This document shows, one piece after another, positions 3,739 through 47,075 of a DNA stretch of 64,000 bases. Where the stretch lies: sequence record ON528727, one strand, 5' to 3'. The position numbers and the translations under genes are program-made. This DNA comes from Shigella phage ESh17. How positions within the stretch are numbered: position 1 is the stretch's first letter; the number at the start of each line of letters is the position of its first letter. Under the pieces are notes generated by a model. The model did no database searches. It saw nothing but the letters and a program-made list of their open reading frames with translations, and had not been told where the DNA came from.

Positions 3739-4388
3739 TTAAACTCCGCATGCCTGCTGGTGGTGAAAGATATATTGATGGTAAATCAGTTTATAAATTA
3801 TACTTAATGATAAAACAACATATGAATGGAAAGTATGATGTAATTAAGTATAATTGGTGCATGCGGGTGTCTGATGCCGCTTATCAAAAGCGAAGGGATA
3901 AGTATTTTTTCCAGAAGTTATCAGAAAAATATAAATTAAAGGAACTTGCTTTAATCTTTATAAGCAATCTGGTTGCTAACCAAGATGCTTGGATTGGTGA
4001 CATCTCTGACGCTGATGCACTTGTGTTTTATCGTGAATATATCGGACGCTTAAAGCAAATTAAATTTAAGTTTGAAGAAGATATTCGCAATATTTACTAT
4101 TTTAGTAAAAAAGTTGAAGTTTCTGCTTTTAAAGAAATCTTTGAGTATAATCCAAAAGTTCAATCAAGTTATATTTTTAAACTACTTCAATCGAATATAA
4201 TTTCGTTTGAGACGTTTATCTTGCTTGATTCGTTTTTAAATATAATCGATAAACATGATGAACAGACTGATAATTTAGTCTGGAATAATTATTCTATAAA
4301 GTTAAAGGCTTATAGAAAAATTTTAAATATTGATTCACAGAAAGCTAAAAGTGTTTTTATTGAAACTGTGAAATCTTGTAAGTATTAA
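3735..4388 (+). CDS. 59: Helicase loader gp59
   Basis: 217 aa MIKLRMPAGGERYIDGKSVYKLY..., ATGA overlap with 33. Confidence 0.93.
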   Translation: MIKLRMPAGGERYIDGKSVYKLYLMIKQHMNGKYDVIKYNWCMRVSDAAYQKRRDKYFFQKLSEKYKLKELALIFISNLVANQDAWIGDISDADALVFYREYIGRLKQIKFKFEEDIRNIYYFSKKVEVSAFKEIFEYNPKVQSSYIFKLLQSNIISFETFILLDSFLNIIDKHDEQTDNLVWNNYSIKLKAYRKILNIDSQKAKSVFIETVKSCKY

Positions 4389-4396
4389 TTGCTTAT

Positions 4397-4404
4397 TATA
4401 AATA
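4397..4404 (+). promoter_or_regulatory. Late promoter TATAAATA upstream of gene 32
   Basis: TATAAATA immediately after gene 59 stop, adjacent to a TTGCTTAT MotA-like box. Confidence 0.5.
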
Positions 4405-4421
4405 GATTATAATTATCTCAC

Positions 4422-4487
4422 TGACCAGCTATGAGGTCATACATCGTCATAGCACCAACTGTTAATTAAATTAAAAAGGAAATAAAA
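4422..4487 (+). promoter_or_regulatory. 32: Gene 32 translational operator: leader pseudoknot plus A/U-rich gp32 binding region
   Basis: Interleaved stems TGACC...CTATGA...GGTCA...TCATAG (4422-4452) then TTAATTAAATTAAAAAGGAAATAAAA before the ATG. Confidence 0.7.
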
Positions 4488-5396
4488 ATGTTTAAACGTA
4501 AATCTACTGCTGAACTCGCTGCACAAATGGCTAAACTGGCTGGAAATAAAGGTGGTTTTTCTTCTGAAGATAAAGGCGAGTGGAAACTGAAACTCGACAA
4601 TGCGGGTAACGGTCAAGCAGTAATTCGTTTTCTTCCGTCTAAAAATGATGAACAAGCACCATTCGCAATTCTTGTAAATCACGGTTTCAAGAAAAACGGT
4701 AAATGGTATATTGAAAACTGTTCATCTACCCACGGTGATTACGATTCTTGTCCAGTATGTCAGTACATCAATAAAAATGATTTGTACAACACTGACAATA
4801 AAGAATACGGTCTTGTTAAACGTAAAACTTCTTACTGGGCTAACATTCTTGTTGTAAAAGACCCAGCTGCTCCAGAAAATGAAGGTAAAGTATTTAAATA
4901 CCGTTTCGGTAAGAAAATCTGGGATAAAATCAATGCAATGATTGCAGTTGATGTTGAAATGGGTGAAACTCCGGTTGATGTAACTTGTCCGTGGGAAGGT
5001 GCTAACTTTGTACTGAAAGTTAAACAAGTTTCTGGTTTTAGTAACTACGACGAATCTAAATTCCTGAATCAATCTGCGATTCCAAACATTGATGATGAAT
5101 CTTTCCAGAAAGAACTGTTCGAACAAATGGTTGACCTTTCTGAAATGACTTCTAAAGATAAATTCAAATCGTTTGAAGAACTGAGCACTAAGTTCAGTCA
5201 AGTTATGGGAACTGCTGCTATGGGTGGTGCCGCAGCAACTGCTGCTAAGAAAGCCGATAAAGTTGCTGATGATTTGGATGCATTTAATGTTGATGACTTC
5301 AAAACAAAAACTGAAGATGATTTTATGAGCTCAAGCTCTGGCAGTTCATCTAGTGCTGATGACACGGACCTGGATGACCTTTTGAATGACCTTTAA
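4488..5396 (+). CDS. 32: Single-stranded DNA-binding protein gp32
   Basis: [24 protein letters not shown]..., acidic Ser/Asp-rich C-terminus, upstream pseudoknot leader. Confidence 0.97.
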
Positions 5397-5418
5397 TAGA
5401 TTATATTACTAATTAATT

Positions 5419-5444
5419 GGGGACCTCTAGGGTCCCCTTTTTTA
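5419..5444 (+). terminator. Intrinsic terminator after gene 32
   Basis: GGGGACC-tctag-GGTCCCC followed by TTTTTTT. Confidence 0.75.
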
Positions 5445-5468
5445 TTTCAAAAATTTTTTCACAAAACG

Positions 5469-5498
5469 GTTTACATCCTTGTCCTTCCATGGTACTAT
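5469..5498 (+). promoter_or_regulatory. Early promoter
   Basis: GGTTTACA, 18 nt, TACTAT. Confidence 0.5.
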
Positions 5499-5541
5499 AC
5501 AACTATCGGCAATACTGCTGATGATTAAAGAGGAAAATAAT

Positions 5542-5769
5542 ATGGCTAAAGTTGATATTGACATCGTTGATTTTGAATATATCGAAGAAATTATTCGTAA
5601 TCGTTATCCTGAACTTAGTATCACAAGCGTGCAAGATTCTAAGTTTTGGAGTATTCAAATCGTTATTGAAGGTCCTCTTGAAGACCTCACCCGCTTTATG
5701 GCTAATGAGTATTGTGATGGTATGGATTCTGAAGACGCAGAATTTTACATGGGACTGATTGAACAATAA
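5542..5769 (+). CDS. Hypothetical early protein (frd.3 position)
   Basis: ORF with SD AAGAGG 9 nt before ATG 5542; track ORF starts at TTG 5479 upstream of the likely transcript start. Confidence 0.5.
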
Positions 5770-5776
5770 TTATCAA

Positions 5777-5798
5777 GGGGCTATTTGATAGCCCCGTT
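5777..5798 (+). terminator. Hairpin after frd.3-position ORF
   Basis: GGGGCTAT-ttga-TAGCCCC then GTT. Confidence 0.5.
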
Positions 5799-5815
5799 AA
5801 ACTGAGGAAATCAAA

Positions 5816-6202
5816 ATGGAAGTTGGAAAAACTTATATCATTAACCCTTTATTTAAAAATGACTTTGCTAACGAGTGCCGTTGCAATGTAATGATGCTAA
5901 ATTTAATAGAGAAGCACGGACCTAGTTTTGTTGTAGATGAAATGGAAAGTGATGATTGTGCTGGTGAATGTGTGGTACGTGTAACTATGGAAGATGGCAC
6001 TAAATACATGGCGGGTGGCCCACTTGAGACGTATTTTGAGATTTACTCTGAAGAATTCAAATACTTTACTGAGGTAACTTTAGAAAAGCCTCAATCCGCT
6101 AATGAAGGTATAGTTTCTGGCGTAACAAAAATTCACTGCATTGTTGACGAAAACAATGTAGATGAAATCATTGAACTTTTGCGAAAAACTTTCAAAAAGT
6201 AG
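5816..6202 (+). CDS. Hypothetical early protein, Cys-rich (frd.x position)
   Basis: 128 aa ORF, SD GAGGA, follows terminator hairpin. Confidence 0.6.
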   Translation: MEVGKTYIINPLFKNDFANECRCNVMMLNLIEKHGPSFVVDEMESDDCAGECVVRVTMEDGTKYMAGGPLETYFEIYSEEFKYFTEVTLEKPQSANEGIVSGVTKIHCIVDENNVDEIIELLRKTFKK

Positions 6203-6231
6203 TTTACAACAGGGTAGTAGTGTGATACTAT
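6202..6231 (+). promoter_or_regulatory. Early promoter with dyad symmetry AGGGTA/TACCCT around the -10
   Basis: GTTTACA, spacer, TACTAT; inverted repeat 6211-6216/6232-6237. Confidence 0.5.
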
Positions 6232-6259
6232 TACCCTATCAACTACTGAGGAGAATAAA

Positions 6260-6502
6260 ATGAGATTACAACGCCAGAGCATCAAAGATTCAGAAGTTAG
6301 AGGTAAATGGTATTTTAATATCATCGGTAAAGATTCTGATCTCGTTGAAAAAGCTGAACATCTTTTACGTGACATGGGATGGGAAGATGAATGCGATGGA
6401 TGTCCTCTTTATGAAGACGGAGAAAGCGCAGGATTTTGGATTTACCATTCTGACGTCGAGCAGTTTAAAGCTGATTGGAAAATTGTGAAAAAGTCTGTTT
6501 GA
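6260..6502 (+). CDS. Hypothetical early protein
   Basis: 80 aa ORF with SD GAGGAG, own early promoter upstream. Confidence 0.6.
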   Translation: MRLQRQSIKDSEVRGKWYFNIIGKDSDLVEKAEHLLRDMGWEDECDGCPLYEDGESAGFWIYHSDVEQFKADWKIVKKSV

Positions 6503-6511
6503 GGAAATATA

Positions 6512-7332
<821 letters not shown>

Positions 7333-7334
7333 AA

Positions 7335-7744
7335 TAACGCGTGGCGGAAAATATGAATTTTAATTATTACCCTATTCTATTAGAAAAAGACGCGAAACAG
7401 CCAAAGTGGCAGGGTCCTCAGTTTATTAAAGGTGTCTATCAATTAGTAGTTCCTAAAGACAAGATTTATAGCAGTTGTTTCACTGAATCCGCTTGCAGTA
7501 TTTTCGGTAATAGTTCTCCGTATTGGAATTTTGACATAAAGCTGGATAGAAATATCGATATTTGGTTGAAAGCTATGGATATTGGTAATATTACGTTTGA
7601 TGAGAATAATTATCATATTATTGGTCGCTTTTCCAAACGCGGTAAAGAATTATATTTCACGCCTGAAATTGAGAGAAAATTTGATGCTAAACCGTATTGA
7701 TTATTAGCTTCATAAAATGTATTATAATTTATATAAGGTACTAA
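7335..7744 (+). other. Inserted segment between frd stop and td start, flanked by 8 bp direct repeat AAATGAAA
   Basis: frd TGA is overlapped by ATG AAA TAA (td start remnant) at 7329-7337; identical ATG AAA begins intact td at 7745. Confidence 0.6.
7353..7700 (+). CDS. Hypothetical protein encoded on an insertion at the frd/td junction
   Basis: 115 aa from first ATG (track starts at GTG 7341); no recognisable motif; flanked by duplicated AAATGAAA. Confidence 0.55.
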   Translation: MNFNYYPILLEKDAKQPKWQGPQFIKGVYQLVVPKDKIYSSCFTESACSIFGNSSPYWNFDIKLDRNIDIWLKAMDIGNITFDENNYHIIGRFSKRGKELYFTPEIERKFDAKPY

Positions 7745-8605
7745 ATGAAACAATACCAAGATTTAATTAAAGACATTTTTGAAAATGGTTATGAAACCGA
7801 TGACCGAACAGGCACAGGAACAATTGCTTTGTTCGGTACTAAATTACGCTGGGATTTAACTAAAGGTTTTCCTGCAGTAACAACTAAGAAGCTCGCCTGG
7901 AATGCATGTATTGCTGAGCTTCTATGGTTTATTTCCGGTTCTACCAATGTTAATGATTTACGTCTTCGCACTCATGGTAGTCTTATTCAAGGTAAAACTA
8001 TTTGGGACGATAACTATGAAAACCAGGCTAAAGACCTAGGATATCATAGTGGTGAACTTGGTCCAATTTATGGAAAACAGTGGCGTGATTTTGGCGGTGT
8101 AGACCAAATTATAGAAGTTATTGATCGTATTAAAAAACTGCCAAATGATAGGCGTCAAATTGTTTCTGCATGGAATCCAGCTGAACTTAAATATATGGCA
8201 TTACCGCCTTGTCATATGTTCTATCAATTTAATGTTCGTAACGGATACCTTGACCTCCAGTGGTATCAACGTTCGGTAGATGTTTTCCTCGGTCTTCCAT
8301 TTAATATTGCATCATATGCTACGTTAGTTCATATTGTAGCTAAGATGTGTAATCTTATTCCGGGAGATTTGATATTTTCTGGCGGTAATACTCATATCTA
8401 TATGAATCACGTAGAACAATGTAAAGAAATTTTACGTCGTGAACCTATGGATTTATGCGAATTGCAATTAAAATTTCCAGATGAATTTGATGAATGGGAC
8501 ACAGAGTCGCAGGTATTTTGGTTGAGTCAATTCGCAAAGCCGCATAATTTTGTTCTTAACAACTATGAATCACACCCTCCTATTAAAGGAAAGATGGCGG
8601 TGTAA
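7745..8605 (+). CDS. td: Thymidylate synthase (uninterrupted, no intron)
   Basis: 286 aa [26 protein letters not shown]... with PCH active-site motif; continuous ORF. Confidence 0.97.
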
Positions 8606-19392: not shown

Positions 19393-19728
19393 ATGTCTGA
19401 AGTACAACAGCTACCAATTCGTGCTGTCGGTGAATATGTTATTTTAGTTTCTGAACCTGCACAAGCCGGTGATGAAGAAGTTACAGAATCAGGACTTATT
19501 ATCGGTAAACGTGTTCAAGGTGAAGTTCCTGAACTGTGTGTAATTCACTCTGTTGGTCCTGATGTTCCTGAAGGTTTCTGTGAAGTTGGTGATTTGACTT
19601 CTCTTCCAGTTGGTCAAATTCGAAACGTTCCACATCCTTTTGTAGCTCTGGGTCTTAAGCAGCCAAAAGAAATTAAGCAAAAATTCGTTACCTGTCACTA
19701 TAAAGCTATTCCGTGTCTTTATAAGTGA
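19393..19728 (+). CDS. 31: Co-chaperonin gp31 (GroES analogue)
   Basis: 111 aa [29 protein letters not shown]... Confidence 0.92.
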
Positions 19729-19875
19729 TATAAATAATAATATGAATTGGGTGTCGGAATAATAAGTTAACCGAACAATTCTATGTGGTAGTCTACAACT
19801 GAGAGATCTGTCGAAAGAAGATGAAATTCAGAAGAACGTGACTACCGAGTTTTAATCTCTAACGAGAATTTTTAA

Positions 19876-20124
19876 ATGATTAAACAATTACAACACGCTC
19901 TTGAACTGCAACGAAACGCATGGAATAATGGTCACGAAAACTATGGCGCATCTATTGATGTTGAAGCCGAAGCTCTTGAAATCCTGCGTTATTTTAAACA
20001 TCTGAATCCTGCTCAAACTGCATTAGCTGCTGAGCTTCAGGAAAAAGATGAACTTAAATATGCTAAGCCTCTGGCTTCTGCTGCACGAAAAGCAGTTCGT
20101 CACTTTGTGGTAACACTGAAGTAA
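19876..20124 (+). CDS. rIII: rIII lysis-inhibition accessory protein
   Basis: 82 aa MIKQLQHALELQRNAWNNGHENYG... Confidence 0.88.
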   Translation: MIKQLQHALELQRNAWNNGHENYGASIDVEAEALEILRYFKHLNPAQTALAAELQEKDELKYAKPLASAARKAVRHFVVTLK

Positions 20125-20368
20125 TTTATTGGAGATTCACTGCCTTAGTGTGAGCTAAAATCGAGGAGCCGTCGAACTGTCTGATTAATGATTTGCGAAT
20201 CATTATAGTTTTAAGACCCCGGCAGTTTTACGGTGTACCTCTTGAATGTGAATGATGACGGGTTTATGGTTATCCTGTCGGTAAATATACAAAACCTAAG
20301 TACCCCCTTGAGGGCTTGCGCAGGCAATGCCAATAAGTCCTGCATTTTCATTTAAAAGAGAATTTATA

Positions 20369-20545
20369 ATGGCAAAACAAGTTAAAGCAAAGAAAGCAGT
20401 TGAAAAGAAAGTTGGTGATTCTAAACGCGCTGGCTACAAGCGTGGGTCGAACTCTCGTATCAATCAAACTGTTGAGAAGATCATGCGCCGAGCACGTGCG
20501 GTTCTTCGAGATGATGCTTCTCGTTTTGGTAAGCAGAAAGCATAA
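20369..20545 (+). CDS. Small highly basic hypothetical protein (30.9 position)
   Basis: 58 aa MAKQVKAKKAVEKKVGDSKRAGYKRG..., followed by strong terminator. Confidence 0.5.
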   Translation: MAKQVKAKKAVEKKVGDSKRAGYKRGSNSRINQTVEKIMRRARAVLRDDASRFGKQKA

Positions 20546-20550
20546 GTTGA

Positions 20551-20574
20551 GGACTCCTTCGGGAGTCCTTTTTT
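20551..20574 (+). terminator. Intrinsic terminator after 30.9-position ORF
   Basis: GGACTCC-ttcg-GGAGTCC then TTTTTT. Confidence 0.8.
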
Positions 20575-20598
20575 ATTTTCCAAAGATTGCATAAAGTT

Positions 20599-20628
20599 GT
20601 TTACAGTATAGTTCCTTTGTGATAGTAT
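20599..20628 (+). promoter_or_regulatory. Early promoter
   Basis: GTTTACA, 18 nt, TAGTAT; CCTTTGT 20614-20620 is complementary to ACAAAGG at the SD. Confidence 0.5.
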
Positions 20629-20655
20629 TATCTTACACAAACAAAGGAGAATAAA

Positions 20656-21024
20656 ATGAAAATCAATCTTAACTCATACATCAAAGGTAAAGATCACGAC
20701 GGCTATAAAGCTATCGAAACTAAAGAACTTCAGTGGCACTTATACAAAGAACAATTTGAATTTGTAAGTTGCATGACTCCTGAAGGTCCTTCTGATGATT
20801 TCTCTTGGAAAATAATGTTAACTAACTTTTTTACTGGAGATACATACGAATTGAAAACTTTGATTATTGGTAAAATTCGTTGTGAGACTTATGAAGATAA
20901 AGAAACTGGTTACTCTGAAGATGTTACGTGGTATCAAAATGGTCGTATTACCGCTGACCTCTTGATTGAAAAAATGAAAGCCAAAGGTGAATTAAATTTA
21001 GATAATTGGATTAAAGTTGCATAA
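20656..21024 (+). CDS. Hypothetical protein (30.x cluster)
   Basis: 122 aa ORF, SD AAGGAG, early promoter upstream. Confidence 0.55.
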   Translation: MKINLNSYIKGKDHDGYKAIETKELQWHLYKEQFEFVSCMTPEGPSDDFSWKIMLTNFFTGDTYELKTLIIGKIRCETYEDKETGYSEDVTWYQNGRITADLLIEKMKAKGELNLDNWIKVA

Positions 21025-21028
21025 AATA

Positions 21029-21058
21029 GTTTACTTTGGTACAGGATATGATATTATA
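21029..21058 (+). promoter_or_regulatory. Early promoter with dyad symmetry GGTACAGG/CCTGTACC
   Basis: GTTTACT, 17 nt, TATTAT; 8 bp inverted repeat 21038-21045/21061-21068. Confidence 0.5.
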
Positions 21059-21093
21059 TACCTGTACCGCAATTAAACATCTTGGAGAATAAA

Positions 21094-21459
21094 ATGAACT
21101 ACATCAACTTTGAACGTAAATATGTTTCTAATGGTATTGCAGGTTCTATTGATACTATCTGCCTTTGGAAACATCAAAATGGATCAGTATGCGAAATTGA
21201 ACAGTATATGACTCCTAACTACGTTTATATGCGATTTGAAAATGGAATCACGGTTTCAATCACAATGGAAGGTTCAAACTTCAAAATCGCTCTGGATGAT
21301 GATTTTCGTCAACGTGATTTAGGGACTCATCCTTGCTGGAATGGTGCTAATCGCAAGCTTTTGGTTAAAACTTGGATTCGTCATATTCTGAGTAATAGAG
21401 CTAAACCTGAGCATCTTGAAGCAATCTTTGATGTAGTTCTTAACGAATTTGATATTTAA
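21094..21459 (+). CDS. Hypothetical protein (30.x cluster)
   Basis: First ATG after SD GGAG (track TTG 21082). Confidence 0.55.
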   Translation: MNYINFERKYVSNGIAGSIDTICLWKHQNGSVCEIEQYMTPNYVYMRFENGITVSITMEGSNFKIALDDDFRQRDLGTHPCWNGANRKLLVKTWIRHILSNRAKPEHLEAIFDVVLNEFDI

Positions 21460-21469
21460 AATAAAATGA

Positions 21470-21489
21470 GGGGCTTCGGCCCCTTGCTG
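21470..21489 (+). terminator. Hairpin, weak terminator
   Basis: GGGGC-ttcg-GCCCC then TTGCTG. Confidence 0.45.
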
Positions 21490-21500
21490 AGGAAAATACT

Positions 21501-21788
21501 ATGTTTATGACTACTTATTTTGATACTCGTAAAAACTTCTGTGAAGTGGTTTTCTCTAAGGCGCCTAAAGACCTTCCTGCTCATTTGCAACCTACCAGCG
21601 AATCGATTAAAAACTACGTTAATGTAGTATGTCCTTTAGAGTTCCGTACTGTAAATGGGCGCGATACTTTAGCTATCACTAAACTCAATCGTGAAATTGA
21701 CATTGACCCTTCAATTGCGCGCGAAATTAATATCTCTGATATTGGCGGCGGTAATGTTAAATCGCACGGTTTTCAGATGAGGTTCTAA
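21501..21788 (+). CDS. Hypothetical protein (30.x cluster)
   Basis: 95 aa ORF, SD GAGGA. Confidence 0.55.
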   Translation: MFMTTYFDTRKNFCEVVFSKAPKDLPAHLQPTSESIKNYVNVVCPLEFRTVNGRDTLAITKLNREIDIDPSIAREINISDIGGGNVKSHGFQMRF

Positions 21789-21985
21789 TGAAATTCTTTT
21801 TAGGTCAAACTGTTGAATTAAAGGGAGTTGGTATACCTGGATTAATTTCTAAGGTTCTACCTCCATTTAAATGGAGTGGTATTCAAATAAAAGAGGCTTA
21901 TATTGTTTCCTGGGTAGATGGAAATGAAGACCTTCGTATGGGCGATGAATTATCTCCTATTTACGGATTAAAGGAATTAGTATGA
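21788..21985 (+). CDS. Hypothetical protein (30.x cluster)
   Basis: 65 aa ORF, TAATG coupling. Confidence 0.5.
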   Translation: MKFFLGQTVELKGVGIPGLISKVLPPFKWSGIQIKEAYIVSWVDGNEDLRMGDELSPIYGLKELV

Positions 21986-22188
21986 ATATAATTAATAAGA
22001 TTTTTGGAATTCAGTACATTAAGGTCACATATAAAGTAACAGATAAAAATCCATATACTGATGAACACGAAGAACCACGAGTTGAGTCTATTATATTAGA
22101 AAAGGACCCTAACTGGCCAGTTGAATTTCGTCTTCCTTGCTATGGTCATTGGGCTGATGTTGAAATTATAAGCATTGAAAATGTCTGA
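21982..22188 (+). CDS. Hypothetical protein (30.x cluster)
   Basis: 68 aa ORF, ATGA coupling. Confidence 0.5.
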   Translation: MNIINKIFGIQYIKVTYKVTDKNPYTDEHEEPRVESIILEKDPNWPVEFRLPCYGHWADVEIISIENV

Positions 22189-22639
22189 GTTAGAGATTAG
22201 AAGCAATTTTAGGTGGCCATCATGTGCATTAAGTAATTTCGCCCAATGGCCTTTCGTTATGGATGGTATTCAATTTGGAGGTCTTGAAGGATTCCTCCAA
22301 GGGTGCAAGGTGAAAAATGTTGAACAACAACGTCGTATATTTGGGTTATCCGGGCTTGCCGCCCAACAAGCTGGAAGGTCTTATGCTAGAGCTCAGGACC
22401 GTGGGACCCTCTTCTGGCTTGGAGTTCCATTTTCAAGATACTCCCCAGCGTGGAAAGAATTATACACAAATGCATATTTTGAAGCAGCGATCCAAAATAG
22501 GGGCTTTCGCGATGCATTACAAGCCTCGAAAGGAAAAGTTTTGAAGCACAGCATGGCTAGTGGTCTAACAAAAGATGATACAATACTAACCGAAGCTGAA
22601 TTTATTGATGTGTTAAACCTATTAAGAGACTCTCTATGA
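22181..22639 (+). CDS. NADAR/YbiA-like (DUF1768) protein
   Basis: LSNFAQWPFVMDGIQFGGLEGFLQ resembles the YbiA motif FSNFAAWPIKVDG...HYFQ; first ATG used (track TTG 22175); locally GC-richer by eye. Confidence 0.55.
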   Translation: MSELEIRSNFRWPSCALSNFAQWPFVMDGIQFGGLEGFLQGCKVKNVEQQRRIFGLSGLAAQQAGRSYARAQDRGTLFWLGVPFSRYSPAWKELYTNAYFEAAIQNRGFRDALQASKGKVLKHSMASGLTKDDTILTEAEFIDVLNLLRDSL

Positions 22640-23499
22640 AGCCTACTATTTTAACTGATATTGATGGAGTATGTTTAAGCTGGCAATCAGGTCTTCCTTA
22701 TTTTGCTCAGAAATATAATCTTCCGTTAGAACATATTTTAAAAATGATCCAAGATGAGAAATTTATTTCTCCAGGTAAACTATTTAATTGTGATGAAGAA
22801 CTTGGCGTCAAGTTAATTGAAAAATACAATCGTTCAGATTTTATTCGTTACTTGTCTCCGTATAAAGATGCTCTGTGTGTAATTAACAAATTAAAAGAAG
22901 ATTATAATTTTGTAGCTGTTACAGCATTGGGTGATTCTATTGACGCTCTGTTGAATCGTCAATTTAATTTGAATGCTCTTTTTCCTGGTGCCTTCTCAGA
23001 AGTAATGATGTGTGGTCATGATTCTTCAAAAGAAGAGTTATTCAAAAAGGCAAAAGAGAAATATAACGTAATTTGTTATATTGACGATCTTGCTCACCAC
23101 TGCGATCATGCGAGTGAAATATTAAATGTTCCGGTTTATTGGATGGCTCGAGGAGAGCGTGACAATATTCCAAAAACTGCGCAGCGAGTTTATACATGGA
23201 ATGATGTAGAAAATAAGCTTTTTTCACCGAAGGAAAATAAAGAAAGTTTTGATAGTGAAAAAGCTATAAAAGATGTAATTGAGAAGATGGTTAAAAACGA
23301 TTCTTTTCGTTGGAACACTACCTGGAGAACTCCTGGATTTAATCCGTATAATCCATATTATACACATCCATATAATCCATATTATACACACCCGTATCAT
23401 ATGAATCCATTCCATACGTGGAGTTATACTAAGCCTGGTGATGCAGGGTATTTTAATAGATTTACTAGTGGTGATAATATTTTCCAAGGAGCATTCTAA
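22636..23499 (+). CDS. HAD-superfamily phosphatase/nucleotidase-like protein with C-terminal NPYYTHPY repeats
   Basis: N-terminal ILTDIDGV (HAD motif I); C-terminal tandem Pro/Tyr repeats. Confidence 0.6.
   Translation: MKPTILTDIDGVCLSWQSGLPYFAQKYNLPLEHILKMIQDEKFISPGKLFNCDEELGVKLIEKYNRSDFIRYLSPYKDALCVINKLKEDYNFVAVTALGDSIDALLNRQFNLNALFPGAFSEVMMCGHDSSKEELFKKAKEKYNVICYIDDLAHHCDHASEILNVPVYWMARGERDNIPKTAQRVYTWNDVENKLFSPKENKESFDSEKAIKDVIEKMVKNDSFRWNTTWRTPGFNPYNPYYTHPYNPYYTHPYHMNPFHTWSYTKPGDAGYFNRFTSGDNIFQGAF
23350..23397 (+). repeat. 24 bp tandem repeat, 2 copies, encoding NPYYTHPY
   Basis: aatccatattatacacatccatat followed by aatccatattatacacacccgtat, in frame within the HAD-like ORF. Confidence 0.7.
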
Positions 23500-23768
23500 T
23501 GTTTGTCGTTCACACTATTTATGAAAATGAAGGTAATACTACACGTGATTATGGTCACGTAAATCAATTTTTTAGATGCAATCCAGAATTCCGAGCTCAA
23601 AAAGACGAACGAATTTTTAAAAAATGTGTAGAGCAAGGTTTCATTTATATCAAGCACTGGATGCAAGGAAATAAAGTTAGAACTACATATCATAGGTCTT
23701 TGACTGAGCTTAATGATGAATTGATTTATAATAGAGCTGTAAACCAAACTCTAAAGGATGAACAATGA
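23499..23768 (+). CDS. Hypothetical protein (30.1 position)
   Basis: 89 aa ORF, TAATG/ATGA coupling. Confidence 0.55.
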   Translation: MFVVHTIYENEGNTTRDYGHVNQFFRCNPEFRAQKDERIFKKCVEQGFIYIKHWMQGNKVRTTYHRSLTELNDELIYNRAVNQTLKDEQ

Positions 23769-25228
23769 TTCTTAAAATTCTGAACGAAATAGCATCTATT
23801 GGTTCAACTAAGCAGAAGCAAGCAATTCTTGAAAAGAATAAAGATAATGAATTGCTTAAACGAGTATATCGTCTAACTTATTCTCGTGGGTTACAGTATT
23901 ATATCAAGAAATGGCCTAAACCTGGTATTGCTACCCAGAGTTTTGGAATGTTGACTCTTACCGATATGCTTGACTTCATTGAATTCACATTAGCTACTCG
24001 GAAATTGACTGGAAATGCGGCAATTGAAGAATTAACTGGATATATCACCGATGGTAAAAAGGATGATGTTGAAGTTTTGCGTCGGGTGATGATGCGAGAC
24101 CTTGAATGCGGTGCTTCAGTATCTATTGCAAACAAAGTTTGGCCAGGTTTAATTCCTGAACAACCTCAAATGCTGGCAAGTTCTTATGATGAAAAAGGCA
24201 TTAATAAGAATATCAAATTTCCAGCCTTTGCCCAATTAAAAGCTGATGGAGCTCGGTGTTTTGCCGAAGTCAGAGGTGATGAATTAGATGATGTTCGTCT
24301 TTTATCACGAGCTGGTAATGAATATCTAGGATTAGACCTTCTCAAAGAAGAGTTAATCAAAATGACCGCTGAAGCCCGCCAGATTCATCCAGAAGGTGTG
24401 TTAATTGATGGCGAATTGGTATACCATGAGCAAGTTAAAAAGGAGCCAGAAGGCCTAGATTTTCTTTTTGATGCTTATCCTGAAATTAGTAAAGCTAAAG
24501 AATTCGCCGAAGTAGCTGAATCTCGTACTGCATCTAATGGCATCGCCAATAAATCTTTAAAGGGAACCATTTCTGAAAAAGAAGCACAATGCATGAAGTT
24601 TCAGGTCTGGGATTATGTACCGTTGGTAGAAATATACGGTCTTCCGGCGTTTCGTTTAAAATATGATGTACGTTTTTCTAAACTAGAACAAATGACATCA
24701 GGATATGATAAAGTAATTTTAATTGAAAACCAGGTAGTAAATAACCTAGATGAAGCTAAGGTAATTTATAAAAAGTATATTGACCAAGGTCTTGAAGGTA
24801 TTATTCTCAAAAATACCGATGGATTGTGGGAAAATGCTCGTTCAAAAAATCTCTATAAATTTAAAGAAGTAATTGATGTTGATTTAAAAATTGTAGGAAT
24901 TTATCCTCACCGTAAAGACCCTACTAAAGCAGGTGGATTTATTCTTGAATCAGAGTGTGGAAAAATTAAAGTAAATGCTGGTTCAGGCTTAAAAGATAAA
25001 GCTGGTGTAAAATCGCATGAACTTGATCGTACTCGCATTATGGAAAACCAAAATTATTATATTGGAAAAATTCTAGAGTGCGAATGCAACGGTTGGTTAA
25101 AATCTGATGGACGTACTGATTACGTTAAATTATTTCTTCCGATTGCGATTCGTTTACGTGAAGATAAAACTAAAGCTAATACATTCGAGGATGTATTTGG
25201 TGATTTTCATGAGGTAACTGGTCTATGA
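23765..25228 (+). CDS. 30: ATP-dependent DNA ligase
   Basis: 487 aa MILKILNEIASIGSTKQKQAILEKNKDNELLKRVYRL..., adenylation motif KADGAR. Confidence 0.97.
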   Translation: MILKILNEIASIGSTKQKQAILEKNKDNELLKRVYRLTYSRGLQYYIKKWPKPGIATQSFGMLTLTDMLDFIEFTLATRKLTGNAAIEELTGYITDGKKDDVEVLRRVMMRDLECGASVSIANKVWPGLIPEQPQMLASSYDEKGINKNIKFPAFAQLKADGARCFAEVRGDELDDVRLLSRAGNEYLGLDLLKEELIKMTAEARQIHPEGVLIDGELVYHEQVKKEPEGLDFLFDAYPEISKAKEFAEVAESRTASNGIANKSLKGTISEKEAQCMKFQVWDYVPLVEIYGLPAFRLKYDVRFSKLEQMTSGYDKVILIENQVVNNLDEAKVIYKKYIDQGLEGIILKNTDGLWENARSKNLYKFKEVIDVDLKIVGIYPHRKDPTKAGGFILESECGKIKVNAGSGLKDKAGVKSHELDRTRIMENQNYYIGKILECECNGWLKSDGRTDYVKLFLPIAIRLREDKTKANTFEDVFGDFHEVTGL

Positions 25229-25413
25229 AAGCTTACTTAGAAACAATTGTCATTGCTCAAAAAGAAGGTGGAGATGTTTCTACTTCTGTATCACAAGTCA
25301 TTCTCGAATTTGTAGATGCATATGCTTATAATAAATTCACAGAAACATTTGATGCCTATGAAAAAGGTCCAAAGTTTGAAATATATCGTACTCTCTTACC
25401 ACTAGATTACTAA
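25225..25413 (+). CDS. Hypothetical small protein between ligase and alt
   Basis: 62 aa ORF, ATGA overlap with ligase, followed by hairpin. Confidence 0.5.
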   Translation: MKAYLETIVIAQKEGGDVSTSVSQVILEFVDAYAYNKFTETFDAYEKGPKFEIYRTLLPLDY

Positions 25414-25434
25414 AGGCCTTCGGGCCTTTAATTT
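25414..25434 (+). terminator. Hairpin/terminator before alt
   Basis: AGGCC-ttcg-GGCCT then TTAATTTT. Confidence 0.5.
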
Positions 25435-25442
25435 TATAAATA
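25435..25442 (+). promoter_or_regulatory. Late promoter TATAAATA for alt
   Basis: TATAAATA about 24 bp before alt ATG, after a terminator hairpin. Confidence 0.6.
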
Positions 25443-25465
25443 GAATAAACACTAGAGAGGATATG

Positions 25466-27559
25466 ATGGAACTCATTACAGAATTATTTGACGAAGATAC
25501 TACTCTTCCGATTACAAACTTAAATCCAAAGAAGAAAATACCGCAAATTTTTTCAGTTCATGTTGATGACGCAATTGAACAACCAGGCTTTCGTTTATGT
25601 ACCTATACATCTGGAGGTGATACTAATCGCGATTTAAAGATGGGCGATAAAATGATGCATATTGTTCCTTTTACATTAACTGCTAAAGGTTCAATTGCTA
25701 AATTAAAAGGTCTCGGTCCAAGCCCAATTAATTACATCAATTCAGTTTTTACTGTTGCAATGCAAACGATGCGTCAGTATAAAATTGATGCCTGCATGCT
25801 CCGTATTCTTAAGTCTAAAACTGCTGGTCAAGCTCGTCAAATTCAACTTATTGCTGATAGACTTATCCGCAGTCGTTCAGGTGGCAGATACGTCCTTCTT
25901 AAGGAACTCTGGGATTACGATAAAAAGTATGCATATATTCTTATACATCGCAAAAATGTATCACTAGAAGACATTCCAGGAGTTCCGGAAATTAGTACCG
26001 AGCTCTTTACTAAAGTTGAATCGAAGGTCGGTGATGTTTATATCAATAAAGATACTGGAGCTCAAGTAACTAAAAATGAGGCAATTGCAGCATCTATTGC
26101 GCAAGAAAATGATAAACGTTCTGACCAAGCTGTAATCGTTAAAGTTAAAATTTCACGTAGAGCAATTGCGCAAAGTCAATCATTGGAATCTTCTAGATTT
26201 GAAAGTGAATTATTCCAGAAGTATGAATCTACCGCAGCTAATTTCAATAAACCTGCTACCGCTCCTTTAATTCCCGAAGCAGAAGAAATGAAGCTTGGAA
26301 TTAATTCGTTAGCTTCTAAAACTAAGGCAGCAAAAATTATTGCCGAAGGAACTGCGAATGAACTTCACTATGACTATAAATTCTTTTCAAAAAGTGAGGT
26401 TGATGAAGTTTCAGAAAAAATTAAAGATGTAATTTTTAACGCAATCAAAAATGAACCAACTACTTCAATAAAATGTTTAGAGAAATACGCAGCAGCTGTT
26501 AATAAATTCTTTGAAGAATATAAAGATAATTGGCTTGATAAACATAATAAAACTCGTAAAGGGCAACCAGATGAAGTCTGGGGAGAAATAACTAAAAATG
26601 CATGGAATGCAGCAAAAACTAAATTCCTCAAACGAATGATTTATAGCTTTTCTGGAATTGGTGCTGGTCCAATGATTGATATTACTATTGCCCGTGATGG
26701 TTCTAAATATACTCCATCACAAAAGCGAGGTATTAGAGAATATTGTGGTTCAGGATATACAGACATTAATAATCTTCTTTTAGGTCGTTACAATCCAGAA
26801 CGATATGATGTAATGAGTGAAAAAGAAATTGAATCTGCTATAAATAATTTAGATTCAGCTTTTGAAAATGGTGACCGCATACCGGAAGGCATTACAGTTT
26901 ATCGTGCTCAAAGTATGACTGCTCCTATATACGAAGCACTAGTTAAAAATAAAGTGTTCTATTTCAGAAATTTTGTATCTACTTCTTTAACTCCTATCAT
27001 TTTTGGACGTTTTGGAATTACACATGCTGGTATTGGTCTTTTAGAACCAGAAGCTCGCAATGAATTAACAGTTGATAAAAATGAAGAAGGAATAACTATT
27101 AATCCAAACGAAATAAGAGCGTATAAAGAAAATCCTGAATACGTTAAAGTTCAAATAGGATGGGCAATTGATGGAGCTCATAAAGTTAATGTTGTATATC
27201 CAGGAAGTCTCGGAATAGCAACAGAAGCCGAAGTTATTCTACCGCGCGGATTGATGGTCAAAGTTAATAAAATAACTGATGCTTCTAATAATGACGGAAC
27301 CACGTCTAATAATACAAAACTCATTCAAGCTGAAGTTATGACCACCGAAGAACTCACCGAATCGGTAATTTATGACGGTGACCGTTTAATGGAAACCGGC
27401 GAAGTAGTTGCAATGACAGGTGATATTGAAATAGAAGACAGAGTTGACTTTGCATCATTTGTTTCATCAAATGTTAAACAGAAAGTAGAATCATCTCTTG
27501 GAATTATTGCGTCTTGCATAGATATTACAAACATGCCTTACAAGTTCGTTCAAGGATAA
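25466..27559 (+). CDS. alt: Alt ADP-ribosyltransferase (head-packaged, injected)
   Basis: 697 aa MELITELFD..., ART motifs TVYRAQS, FVSTSL, EAEVILPRG; late promoter upstream. Confidence 0.9.
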   Translation: MELITELFDEDTTLPITNLNPKKKIPQIFSVHVDDAIEQPGFRLCTYTSGGDTNRDLKMGDKMMHIVPFTLTAKGSIAKLKGLGPSPINYINSVFTVAMQTMRQYKIDACMLRILKSKTAGQARQIQLIADRLIRSRSGGRYVLLKELWDYDKKYAYILIHRKNVSLEDIPGVPEISTELFTKVESKVGDVYINKDTGAQVTKNEAIAASIAQENDKRSDQAVIVKVKISRRAIAQSQSLESSRFESELFQKYESTAANFNKPATAPLIPEAEEMKLGINSLASKTKAAKIIAEGTANELHYDYKFFSKSEVDEVSEKIKDVIFNAIKNEPTTSIKCLEKYAAAVNKFFEEYKDNWLDKHNKTRKGQPDEVWGEITKNAWNAAKTKFLKRMIYSFSGIGAGPMIDITIARDGSKYTPSQKRGIREYCGSGYTDINNLLLGRYNPERYDVMSEKEIESAINNLDSAFENGDRIPEGITVYRAQSMTAPIYEALVKNKVFYFRNFVSTSLTPIIFGRFGITHAGIGLLEPEARNELTVDKNEEGITINPNEIRAYKENPEYVKVQIGWAIDGAHKVNVVYPGSLGIATEAEVILPRGLMVKVNKITDASNNDGTTSNNTKLIQAEVMTTEELTESVIYDGDRLMETGEVVAMTGDIEIEDRVDFASFVSSNVKQKVESSLGIIASCIDITNMPYKFVQG

Positions 27560-27562
27560 ATC

Positions 27563-29620
27563 ATGGAACTTATTACAGAATTATTTGACGGCGCTTCGGC
27601 GCCGGTTGTTAACTTAAATCCTAAGCATAAAATACCACAAATTTTTGCTATTCAAGCCGGTGAAGAAAGCGTGCTTCCTGGATTTAGATTTTGTACATAC
27701 ACCTCTGGCGGTGATACGAATAAAAACGTTAAGCCAGGCGATAAAATGATGCATATCGTAATGATAGGTGTCAACGAGAAATTATCGCTGGTTAAGCTTA
27801 GAAACTTGGGTGGAAATCCAATTGGCGTCATTAATGCTGTTTTTGATACTGCTCTTCAAACAATGAAACAGTATAAAATTGACGCATGCCTATTCCGCGT
27901 ACTAAAAAGTAAAACAAATGGCGCTGCTCGTCAAATGCAAGTTATTGCTGACCGTTTAGTACGTACTAAAGGAGCAGGTCGATATGTTCTTTTAAAGGAA
28001 ATCTGGGACTATGATAAAAAGTATGCATATATTATGGTTTACCGTAAAAATGCCAATTTAGAAGACATTCCAGGTGTACCTCCTATTTCAACTGAGTTAT
28101 TCACAAAAGTTGAATCGAAGGTCGGTGATGTTTATGTAGATGTTAAAACAGGTAATGCTGTTCCTAAAGCTGTCGCTGTTGCTGCTTCTATTGCTTTAGA
28201 AAATGATAAGCGCACGGATCAAGCTGTTATTCAAAAAACTAAAATTAGTCGTCGATTAGCAGCACAAGCTCAATATTCTACTGTCGATGCTTCACTTCAG
28301 GGTGATAGCTTCGCTGCTAAGAAATATCAAGAGTTTGAATCTAAAGTTCCGGTATATAAAGCAGAAGGTCCGATGAACTCTGGCGTTATCCAGATTGGTT
28401 CAAACTTCAGCAAAGGAGCTATCGGTGGTATGAGGAGTGCTTCTCGTTTTAAATCTAGCGATTATGAACTAGAAAACTTCCGAAATCATATTGCATTGGC
28501 CCATGCACGTTTACGTGATCCATCTATCAAGTTGCAGAGCGATATAACATATCAAGGTTCTCAAGAATATTTAAAGAATAAAGAATTCTTTGATTATAAA
28601 ACTGATAAAATTTTAAGCGATCTTGCTGACATTAATATTTCTAATAGCTTTGATGTTATTAAGAAAATTATTAATGATTTAGTTAAAGGTTCTAAAGCTA
28701 CGCCAGATGAAAAGACAGCTATTATTCAATTTGTCATGAATGGCATTTATAAATTGATTAATGAATCTGCTGCCCAGGCATATGAATATGCAAGCACCGA
28801 AGTAACTCCAAAAGGATTAACTCAGGCTGAGTCTGATGTAATTGAAGATTATTGTGCAGATTCATATGTTGAAATGAACTCGTTCCTCTTGGGTAAACCA
28901 GATTCTACCCGTGAAGAATACATGGAACGAGCTATTAAACACATCGAGACAATGGATTCTGCATTCGCTAAAGGTTCAGTTCTTCCTCCAGGAACTACGC
29001 TTTATCGTGGACAAGAAGTTACTTTTAAAACTTTACGTCATAATATTGAAAACAAAATGTTCTATTTCAAGAACTTTGTATCCACGTCGCTTAAACCAAA
29101 CATCTTCGGTGAGCATGGTAAAAACTATATGGCTCTAGATGATTCCGGTGCAGTATTTTCTGGTGAAGGAGAAGGTTCTGTTGATGCTGAAGATTTAATG
29201 CATATGGGTAGTCACTCTGCTTATGCGAATGAAGACGCTGAAACTAGCGTAGGTATGGTAATTAAAGGGGCTGAGCGAATCAAAGTTATCGTTCCAGGTC
29301 ATTTATCAGGATTTCCATCAGAAGCTGAAGTTATTTTACCGCGTGGAATTTTGCTGAAGATTAATAAAGTGAGCACGTACATGATGAAAGAAACTGCTTA
29401 TAATAAGTATCTAATCGAAGGCACAATCGTTCCTCCTTCTGAACAATTAGAAGAATCGGTATATGATGGCGATCATCTAATGGAAACTGGTGAAGTTCGT
29501 CCAATGGCTGGGTTTAATCAATTCCTTGTAGAAGAATCAAAAGAAGAGGAAAACGAAGTTTCTCAAATCTTGGCTTCTTTGGTTAACATCAACGGAATGT
29601 CTAAAAAGTTCAAGATGTAG
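27563..29620 (+). CDS. Alt-like ADP-ribosyltransferase paralogue
   Basis: 685 aa; same N-terminus MELITELFD and same ART motifs (TLYRGQE, FVSTSL, EAEVILPRG), divergent middle region. Confidence 0.8.
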   Translation: MELITELFDGASAPVVNLNPKHKIPQIFAIQAGEESVLPGFRFCTYTSGGDTNKNVKPGDKMMHIVMIGVNEKLSLVKLRNLGGNPIGVINAVFDTALQTMKQYKIDACLFRVLKSKTNGAARQMQVIADRLVRTKGAGRYVLLKEIWDYDKKYAYIMVYRKNANLEDIPGVPPISTELFTKVESKVGDVYVDVKTGNAVPKAVAVAASIALENDKRTDQAVIQKTKISRRLAAQAQYSTVDASLQGDSFAAKKYQEFESKVPVYKAEGPMNSGVIQIGSNFSKGAIGGMRSASRFKSSDYELENFRNHIALAHARLRDPSIKLQSDITYQGSQEYLKNKEFFDYKTDKILSDLADINISNSFDVIKKIINDLVKGSKATPDEKTAIIQFVMNGIYKLINESAAQAYEYASTEVTPKGLTQAESDVIEDYCADSYVEMNSFLLGKPDSTREEYMERAIKHIETMDSAFAKGSVLPPGTTLYRGQEVTFKTLRHNIENKMFYFKNFVSTSLKPNIFGEHGKNYMALDDSGAVFSGEGEGSVDAEDLMHMGSHSAYANEDAETSVGMVIKGAERIKVIVPGHLSGFPSEAEVILPRGILLKINKVSTYMMKETAYNKYLIEGTIVPPSEQLEESVYDGDHLMETGEVRPMAGFNQFLVEESKEEENEVSQILASLVNINGMSKKFKM

Positions 29621-29673
29621 TTTACAAGTCCCTCGTGTTGTGTTACAATAGTTTTACTGACATAACATGAGGA
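29620..29673 (+). repeat. 54 bp promoter/leader cassette, copy 2 (after alt paralogue)
   Basis: Same sequence as 14273-14326 with a few substitutions; -10 here is TACAAT. Confidence 0.7.
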
Positions 29674-29680
29674 ACACAAA

Positions 29681-29971
29681 ATGAAATCTTCTTTACGCTT
29701 TTTAGGTCAAGAACTTGTAGTTGAAGGCGTTATTCCTGCTGATAACGCTTTTAATGAAGCAGTTTATGATGAATTTATCAAAATTTTTGGAACAGATAAA
29801 AAGTTCGGAATTTTTCCTTCTGAAAATTTTTCAAAGCCAGAGCAGACTGAAAGCATTTTCCAAGGTGTAGTAACAGGTAAATTTGAGTCAGAAGCTCCGG
29901 TAAAAATTGAAGTTTATATTGAAGACAGTTTAGTTGCTTCAGTTGCTGCTTTTATTTCATTCCGTAAATAA
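29681..29971 (+). CDS. Hypothetical protein with own early promoter
   Basis: 96 aa ORF, SD GAGGA, convergent with gene 54. Confidence 0.55.
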   Translation: MKSSLRFLGQELVVEGVIPADNAFNEAVYDEFIKIFGTDKKFGIFPSENFSKPEQTESIFQGVVTGKFESEAPVKIEVYIEDSLVASVAAFISFRK

Positions 29972-45509: not shown

Positions 45510-47075
45510 TTAGATACCTTTAACATATACACGGCGGAAGTAAGCGTTTTTACCAAGGCTATTCAGAATAGAAGGCATACCGCTTTGGATGCGAGAAGCC
45601 GGAGCCTGAGCAGCGGATTCTGCAAATGGGTTGATACCGATACCGTAACGAGTTTTGAATCCCATTACTGGTTGGAAGTTCTTCGGATCGGAACCACGCA
45701 GCGGAGTCAGCGCTACATATGGAGCGTAGTAAATACCAGCATCCATTTCGTTCGGACCTTTATAACCTACAGTGAAATAATCCTGTTTAGCATACTGGTC
45801 GATATATACGCGGTATTTACCACCCAGAACACCAGCAAATACTGACTTGGTAGTATCAGTGTTAAAGCCGGTAGCCAGACCCTGTGCAGCATAAGAAATG
45901 CCGGTATCAACTGAAGCCAGAACGTTAACTACGTTACGGGAAGCGATAATGAAGTTACCTTCACCACGACCGGTCTGACGAGCAATTTCAACTGCTTCTT
46001 TGTCAATCTGGAACAACAGAGCTTTAAAGGATTCACCCGCCCAGCGAGCACCACGAATATCAATCGGATCCTGGAAGTCAAATACACCAGCTTTAGAACC
46101 CGGAGTCAGGGTCATACCAGATTTACCAACCTGTGCGGAGTAGTTAATCCAATCAACAACTTCACGGTTGATTTCTAGCATGATTTCGGTAGCCAGAATA
46201 CCAGACAGTTCAGCATCAGCATCCATACCGTGAACAGCGCGGAGGTCTTGTGCTAATTCGATAGAGTAAGCAGCTTTCAGCTGGCGAGATTTAGCTTCGA
46301 TAACTTGTTTATCGATACGGAAGCCCATTTCATTCCATGGGTTATCGGTAGAACCATTGAAACCTTCCTGAAGTTCAGCGATAGAAGTAGCCATGCCTTC
46401 AGCGATTTCTACCAGTACACCAGCTTCCATTTGTTTCTTAACTTCGGCATCTAATTTAGCAGCATCAGTCGCACCAGCATCAATTGTTACTACAGCGGAA
46501 GCTTGCAGATATACAGTGCCAGTTTCCTGGAAGAAGTGAGAATAGATGTCACCTACAACGGTTTGTGTGCTAGCAGCCAGAGCTGGGAATTTCTTAGCAG
46601 CACCCTGACCAGAGAACATTGCATCTGGACCATACATTGGGTGGAATGCTTCTTTAGCACCGGCAGCCACTGGGTCTTTACCATATACTGCGCGCAGTGC
46701 GAATACCTGGCCAGTCGGGCTGTTCATCGGCTGAACACCACAAATATCGAAAGCAATCAGGTTAGGAATAGCACGACGTACCATACCCATAACAGCTGGG
46801 CCAATCTGGGTTACTGCGCCAGAAGTCTGACCTGCAGCGATGTTAGTAGCATTGTAACCATGGTCACCGCCGATTTCAGCTTCTGTTAAGAAAGAACCAA
46901 ATGCCTGAGCAATTTTTTCGTCTTTATATTCCGGAGCTGTCTGGAAATCTTTTTCCTGGTTTTCAAAGATTTTAGCGATAATCGCTTGTTTGCTATTAGC
47001 AATTTCCGGTAAACCTTCACCTTCCAGTAATGGCTTCCATTTGTTCAAAAGTTCAGCTTTAGTTTTGATAGTCAT
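45510..47075 (-). CDS. 23: Major capsid protein gp23
   Basis: 521 aa MTIKTKAELLNKWKPLLEGEGLPEIANSKQAIIAKIF... Confidence 0.97.
   Translation of the reverse strand: MTIKTKAELLNKWKPLLEGEGLPEIANSKQAIIAKIFENQEKDFQTAPEYKDEKIAQAFGSFLTEAEIGGDHGYNATNIAAGQTSGAVTQIGPAVMGMVRRAIPNLIAFDICGVQPMNSPTGQVFALRAVYGKDPVAAGAKEAFHPMYGPDAMFSGQGAAKKFPALAASTQTVVGDIYSHFFQETGTVYLQASAVVTIDAGATDAAKLDAEVKKQMEAGVLVEIAEGMATSIAELQEGFNGSTDNPWNEMGFRIDKQVIEAKSRQLKAAYSIELAQDLRAVHGMDADAELSGILATEIMLEINREVVDWINYSAQVGKSGMTLTPGSKAGVFDFQDPIDIRGARWAGESFKALLFQIDKEAVEIARQTGRGEGNFIIASRNVVNVLASVDTGISYAAQGLATGFNTDTTKSVFAGVLGGKYRVYIDQYAKQDYFTVGYKGPNEMDAGIYYAPYVALTPLRGSDPKNFQPVMGFKTRYGIGINPFAESAAQAPASRIQSGMPSILNSLGKNAYFRRVYVKGI

Follow-up and report, generated by a model that had tools for sequence, protein, structure and literature searches.

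An intact adfN (gene 30.3) in Shigella phage ESh17: an orphan NADAR expected to reverse guanine ADP-ribosylation on phage DNA

The DNA analysed here, a stretch of 64,000 nucleotides from Shigella phage ESh17 (record ON528727; hereafter the window), is a segment of a Tequatrovirus (T4-like) genome, and the open reading frame (ORF) found at positions 22181-22639 of its plus strand is adfN, the gene 30.3 of T4-like phages, whose product is very probably an orphan NADAR that reverses guanine ADP-ribosylation on phage DNA. It is an ordinary, intact copy of a counter-defence gene that is already known and characterised. Our analysis provides the identity of the gene, its intactness, its fold, its catalytic residues and the lack of a linked toxin gene, while activity, guanine specificity and the anti-DarTG1 phenotype are carried over by analogy from published work on the T4 protein. 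As gene, fold, activity and anti-DarTG1 role were all published in 2024-2025, little is added here scientifically, and the practical value lies in the annotation of a family that is mostly labelled hypothetical.

The gene and the published function of its T4 counterpart

The ORF encodes 152 amino acids (aa) between an ATG at 22181 and a TGA at 22637-22639, with an in-frame TTG at 22175 just ahead of the start codon. Its identity as gene 30.3 comes from the gene order that it shares with the annotated T4 record; megablast matches to the surrounding 2.3 kb were found in 657 phage records, the top one being Shigella phage ESh18 (98.7%), and Escherichia phage vB-Eco-KMB23 encodes a protein that is 100% identical. 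The window protein and T4 gp30.3 are of equal length and identical at 150 of 152 residues. The two differences, K107R and I125M, fall at variable columns of a family alignment of 40 full-length homologues (34-86% identical), Met125 being the family consensus, and nothing differs from residue 126 to the C-terminal end. Because of this 99% identity, and because both substitutions are at variable positions, we infer that the allele of the window would behave like that of T4. Both proteins have E36, K43, H123 and the C-terminal helix, and both genes lie between 30.4 and 30.2, upstream of the DNA ligase gene; what sets the window apart is the two substitutions, which are conservative, and a phage that is not T4 itself and that carries two full-length alt paralogues.

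The function of the T4 protein is well documented. The DarTG1 resistance of phages T2 and T4 was mapped to gene 30.3, and its product was renamed AdfN (anti-DarT factor NADAR) in 2025 (Johannesman et al., Nat Commun 2025, PMC11825919). In the same work, ectopic AdfN restored the plating of RB69 on DarTG1 hosts, and this rescue was impaired by E36A, by K43A and by an RB69-like truncation; the RB69 allele is itself defective, a frameshift having removed its C-terminal helix. Purified AdfN takes ADP-ribose (ADPr) off DarT1-modified DNA, does not bind DarT1, and has no effect on the thymidine-modifying DarTG2 (PMC11825919). T4 gp30.3 was also found to hydrolyse guanosine-ADPr, and not thymidine-ADPr, in vitro (Ahel laboratory, Toxins 2024, PMC11125620), and a T4 transposon screen, HIDEN-SEQ, showed adfN to be dispensable on K-12 and required on DarTG1 hosts (bioRxiv 10.1101/2025.11.20.689424). 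Phage NADARs had been recognised earlier by bioinformatics, in T4-like early regions near ADP-ribosyltransferases (ARTs) (PMC9503650, citing de Souza and Aravind 2012). A sequence-only reading of this DNA had proposed that the phage copy could counter a DarT-like defence by reversing ADP-ribosylation of guanine, which is what experiments on the T4 protein, 99% identical, have demonstrated (PMC11825919, PMC11125620, bioRxiv 10.1101/2025.11.20.689424). That a reading of the raw sequence, made without tools, arrived at the correct family and biological role is a useful calibration point.

Transposed to the window, the mechanism would involve an adfN made early in infection and a product acting as a small stand-alone enzyme of NADAR fold. 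When guanines of phage DNA under replication are ADP-ribosylated by the host toxin DarT1, AdfN would hydrolyse the N-glycosidic bond between ADP-ribose and guanine, so that the base is restored and replication can continue. AdfN would act catalytically on damaged DNA, as host DarG1 does, and not by binding the toxin, which would make it a phage-borne 'orphan antitoxin'. We found no DarT domain in the 15 neighbouring ORFs (19393 to 29971), and PADLOC is silent on adfN and 30.2: with no linked DarT (DUF4433) toxin gene, this is an orphan NADAR and not the antitoxin of a DarTG1 module. Two other anti-DarT factors of T-even phages, AdfM (the T4 Tk.4 macrodomain) and AdfA (T4/RB69), work differently, as AdfM has an unrelated macrodomain fold and counters the thymidine-modifying DarT2, whereas AdfA binds DarT1 directly. 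From T4 map coordinates, the genes for both would be expected outside the window, in which no search for them was made.

Family assignment and catalytic residues

What supports the assignment of the window protein to the NADARs is remote homology together with a modelled fold, and on these the family named in the sequence-only reading is borne out. The profile built from the 40 homologues finds E. coli YbiA (PDB 2b3w) with E=0.003, exactly over the motif quoted in that reading; hhalign of the same alignment against K-12 YbiA gives a probability of 94.4% (E=9.3e-8), and the Pfam NADAR family, PF08719, is matched by 18 of the 40 homologues (best 1.5e-7). The motif itself, which had been described as resembling YbiA, is present at residues 17-40: in the profile alignment LSNFAQWPFVMDGIQFGGLEGFLQ matches the YbiA stretch FSNFAAWPIKVDGKTWPTSEHYFQ column for column, and the signature also aligns to YbiA FSNFAAWPIKVDG...EHYFQ. 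Nine of its residues (L17, S18, N19, F20, F25, E36, G37, F38 and Q40) are invariant among the homologues. A PDB search with the single sequence of the window protein returned nothing relevant. The features of the gene are the following.

22181-22639, plus strand: adfN (T4 gene 30.3) coding sequence, 152 aa plus stop; putative orphan DNA ADP-ribosylglycohydrolase of the NADAR superfamily
22229-22300, plus strand: N-terminal NADAR signature, residues 17-40
22286-22288, plus strand: codon GAA of catalytic Glu36, invariant in the 40-homologue alignment; mutant data in PMC11825919
22307-22309, plus strand: codon AAG of Lys43, catalytic / ADP-ribose-contacting, at least 90% conserved in the 40 homologues (PMC11825919)
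22547-22549, plus strand: codon CAC of His123, directly past the last beta-strand, invariant in the 40 homologues
22592-22633, plus strand: predicted C-terminal alpha-helix, residues 138-151, intact according to the structure model and the identity to T4

The residue found at the last strand distinguishes the groups within the superfamily: YbiA proteins have a Glu there, DarT-linked NADARs an Asp, and the gp30.3 proteins of phages a His (PMC11125620). In the structure model the last strand spans residues 120-122, which would place the invariant His123 just beyond it, at the position where the YbiA subfamily has its Glu. The window protein thus shows the traits of NADARs at large, namely homology detectable by profiles, an N-terminal catalytic Glu and Lys, and a charged or polar last-strand residue, and also those of the AdfN/gp30.3 clade, namely a PF08010 (Phage_30_3) match above the gathering score (hmmscan E=5e-70, 234 bits against a cut-off of 36), the last-strand His, and full length including the C-terminal helix. 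From DarG1 and the other DarT-associated NADARs (BC4488-type; Geobacter lovleyi NADAR, PDB 8bat) it is separated by an identity of only ~15%, by a last-strand His in place of their Asp, and by having no DarT next to it.

Some results weigh against this reading. The same hmmscan gave no PF08719 match at E<=1, and the window protein has no relevant match in NCBIfam or PADLOC. The first of these is due to Pfam modelling the gp30.3 clade separately, as PF08010. A search against the NADAR profile was the check proposed along with the sequence-only reading, and when run plainly on the window protein its literal outcome would be a rejection; a naive Pfam NADAR scan would, in other words, wrongly discard a true NADAR. 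On the functional side, T4 AdfN does not rescue uninfected E. coli from DarT1, cells in which it cannot replace DarG1, and it barely helps phages T5 and Bas25 (PMC11825919, PMC11125620). Since T4 AdfN is inactive outside T-even infection, the simple picture of a free-standing glycohydrolase is incomplete. T4 AdfN is fully effective only within a T-even infection, and a T-even cofactor is suspected by the authors of the original work (PMC11825919).

Gene neighbourhood and alternative roles

The gene overlaps both of its neighbours:

21982-22188: small upstream gene 30.4, whose stop at 22186-22188 lies within adfN, the two genes sharing 8 nt
22636-22639, plus strand: ATGA overlap of the adfN stop and the start of gene 30.2, from the sequence and the ORF coordinates

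Such tight operon packing on either side suggests translational coupling. In the 3' direction, adfN is followed by 30.2, 30.1 (DUF3045), the gene for DNA ligase gp30, alt.1 and two Alt genes. A promoter scan gave 38 sites versus 39.9 expected and is uninformative. The product of 30.2 has no Pfam or NCBIfam match; the HAD phosphatase motifs are retained across its family alignment, with D8, D10, K132, D150 and D151 invariant, and the family profile has a weak match to a 5'(3')-deoxyribonucleotidase (E=0.034). By these features gp30.2 is a HAD-fold phosphatase, closest to the 5'(3')-deoxyribonucleotidases. Much of the arrangement recurs in Acinetobacter phage Melin, which belongs to another Straboviridae subfamily (Twarogvirinae) and in which the order is rIII ... 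NADAR (of only 41% identity), HAD (30.2), DNA ligase, a small ORF and an Alt-like ART, the stretch from NADAR to ART being at 4001-8438.

It is conceivable, although we consider it unlikely, that AdfN needs a phage partner encoded in its own operon, with gp30.2 as the candidate, or that it has a second substrate tied to the neighbouring Alt enzymes. If this were true, AdfN and gp30.2 could constitute a two-step module for the de-ADP-ribosylation and clean-up of DNA. The ATGA coupling between adfN and 30.2 speaks for a partnership, as does the adjacency of the pair in a phage as distant as Melin, and the HAD features of gp30.2 are suggestive but thin; the published chimera mapping, in which the 3' part of 30.3 alone was needed, weighs against gp30.2 being that partner. 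A conserved NADAR-HAD pair was not found in distant phage contigs, in one of which a 199-aa ORF overlapping the NADAR gene is unrelated to gp30.2.

The HAD phosphatase gene coupled downstream is also in keeping with an enzyme that mainly degrades soluble ADP-ribose-derived molecules, such as immune signals or by-products of RNA repair, and not ADP-ribosylated DNA. This role was suggested for phage NADARs from their genomic context, ahead of any experiments (PMC9503650); the early cluster of T4 also has the RNA-repair genes pseT and rnlA a few kb upstream, and the failure of T4 AdfN to act outside T-even infection would allow for other substrates. We nevertheless deem it very unlikely, given that no soluble substrate has been demonstrated and that the de-ADP-ribosylation of DNA in vitro, together with a mutant phenotype specific to DarTG1, already explains the selective value of the gene (PMC11825919, PMC11125620, bioRxiv 10.1101/2025.11.20.689424).

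The neighbourhood offers yet another candidate function. ADP-ribosyltransferase genes had been mentioned close to the NADAR gene, and two Alt paralogues, both full-length and with PF03496, do lie 2.8 kb downstream on the same strand, at 25463-27559 (+) and 27563-29620 (+). Their closeness would be explained if AdfN erased or tuned the ADP-ribosylation made by the phage's own Alt, and both the co-expression of NADARs with ARTs in T4-like phages (PMC9503650) and the synteny of NADAR, HAD, ligase and ART kept in Melin would fit. However, NADAR activity on protein substrates is unreported and Alt targets arginines of proteins, whereas all tested NADARs are specific for guanine-ADPr and inactive on thymidine-ADPr (PMC11825919, PMC11125620). 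Moreover, the knockout of adfN is silent without DarTG1, showing no phenotype on plain K-12 (bioRxiv 10.1101/2025.11.20.689424), and in Melin terminators and a change of strand separate the ART gene from the others, so that the genes do not form one operon. For these reasons we see no support for AdfN and Alt being functionally linked, and an eraser of Alt marks strikes us as extremely improbable.

YbiA itself is encoded by a housekeeping gene of the chromosome that is under LexA control. The chance that AdfN is likewise a housekeeping N-glycosidase, of the YbiA type and acting on riboflavin-pathway intermediates, is close to nil: E. coli YbiA (PDB 2b3w, PF08719) is the nearest sequence-level match among solved structures, but identity is ~20%, the catalytic residue of the last strand is His and not the Glu that defines YbiA, the gp30.3 family is confined to phage-like contexts, and the DarTG1 phenotype is published.

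The Alt genes have some features of their own. The tandem copies, of 698 and 685 aa, share 41% identity; in their place T4 has a single alt and the remnants alt.-1/alt.-2. The first copy (25463-27559) is a mosaic with respect to T4 Alt, which it matches almost perfectly over residues 1-245 and over the last ~100, while identity falls to only about half in the middle, where the catalytic domain lies. The N-terminus of the second copy (27563-29620) matches PHROG families that apparently correspond to the T4 alt.-1/alt.-2 remnants.

Base composition, distribution and allele decay

The sequence-only reading had judged adfN richer in GC than the flanking genes and had seen in this a sign of horizontal acquisition. 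The observation withstands calculation, and the interpretation does not. The GC content of adfN is 42.5% versus 36.1% for the window, a value reached by 3.7% of segments of the same length (z 1.96); the gene ranks second among 82 ORFs (z 2.06), and third for GC at third codon positions (GC3, 0.336 versus a mean of 0.248). The elevation is therefore real but moderate, of about two standard deviations. The only ORF with a higher GC content (45.7%; GC3 0.361), and the one with the largest GC3 excess over expectation, is a 521-aa ORF at 45510-47075 on the minus strand, which is probably the major capsid protein gene.

Most of the excess can be traced to the protein. Compared with other ORFs, AdfN is rich in Gly, Ala, Arg, Gln and Leu and poor in Lys, Ile and Asn, and this composition predicts 40.8% GC under the codon usage of the window, which accounts for about 5 points of the excess of 6.4. 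What is left, +1.8 points, puts adfN 15th among the 82 ORFs, and by its GC3 residual it comes 6th. A GC content of 40-42% is also found in alleles from four Tevenvirinae genera (Tequatrovirus, Mosigvirus, Gaprivervirus and Dhakavirus). In more distant homologues GC follows the surroundings or departs slightly from them in either direction, and an excess is far smaller or absent: 34.8 versus 35.9% in Melin, 44.4 versus 41.7% in Klebsiella phage VAC13, and 45.3 versus 45.1% and 31.3 versus 37.4% in two metagenomic contigs. With a GC content that is mostly driven by composition and shared by four genera, and a position that is kept in distant Straboviridae in what must be an ancient synteny, the GC of adfN is no sign of recent acquisition, and we reject it as evidence of horizontal transfer. 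The gene has long been part of this region of the genome, and any capture from bacteria is ancient.

A further ORF, 30.3', is annotated inside gene 30.3 of T4 and is present in the window at 22317-22544 (+), in frame +1 of adfN, with 75 codons. Of eight alleles sampled across three genera, seven have this frame open, and in Mosigvirus APCEc01 it is broken. When synonymous codons were resampled with the AdfN protein fixed and background codon usage, the frame was open by chance with P ~0.13-0.18, and synonymous change in adfN is not reduced inside the overlap. A real overlapping gene is thus unsupported; 30.3' has the look of a side effect of the raised GC in adfN, which suffices for a long stop-free frame.

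By tblastn, the gp30.3 family is found in 1,510 of 50,697 phage records. Its carriers are mostly Straboviridae of Escherichia, Klebsiella, Shigella, Aeromonas, Acinetobacter, Vibrio and Enterobacter, with some phages of Rhizobium and Ralstonia, and relatives from metagenomes (35-47% identity) are also on phage-like contigs. Nearly all of the records listed annotate the gene as 'hypothetical protein'.

Disrupted alleles of adfN also occur in public T4-like phage and metagenome data. Some are truncated at the N- or C-terminus, others pass by frameshift from one of the frames 30.3 and 30.3' to the other, and others again are fused by deletion to upstream 30.4, 30.7 or 30.8. These alleles suggest recurrent loss of adfN or, in some cases, sequencing errors, and they fit a gene that is dispensable without DarTG1.
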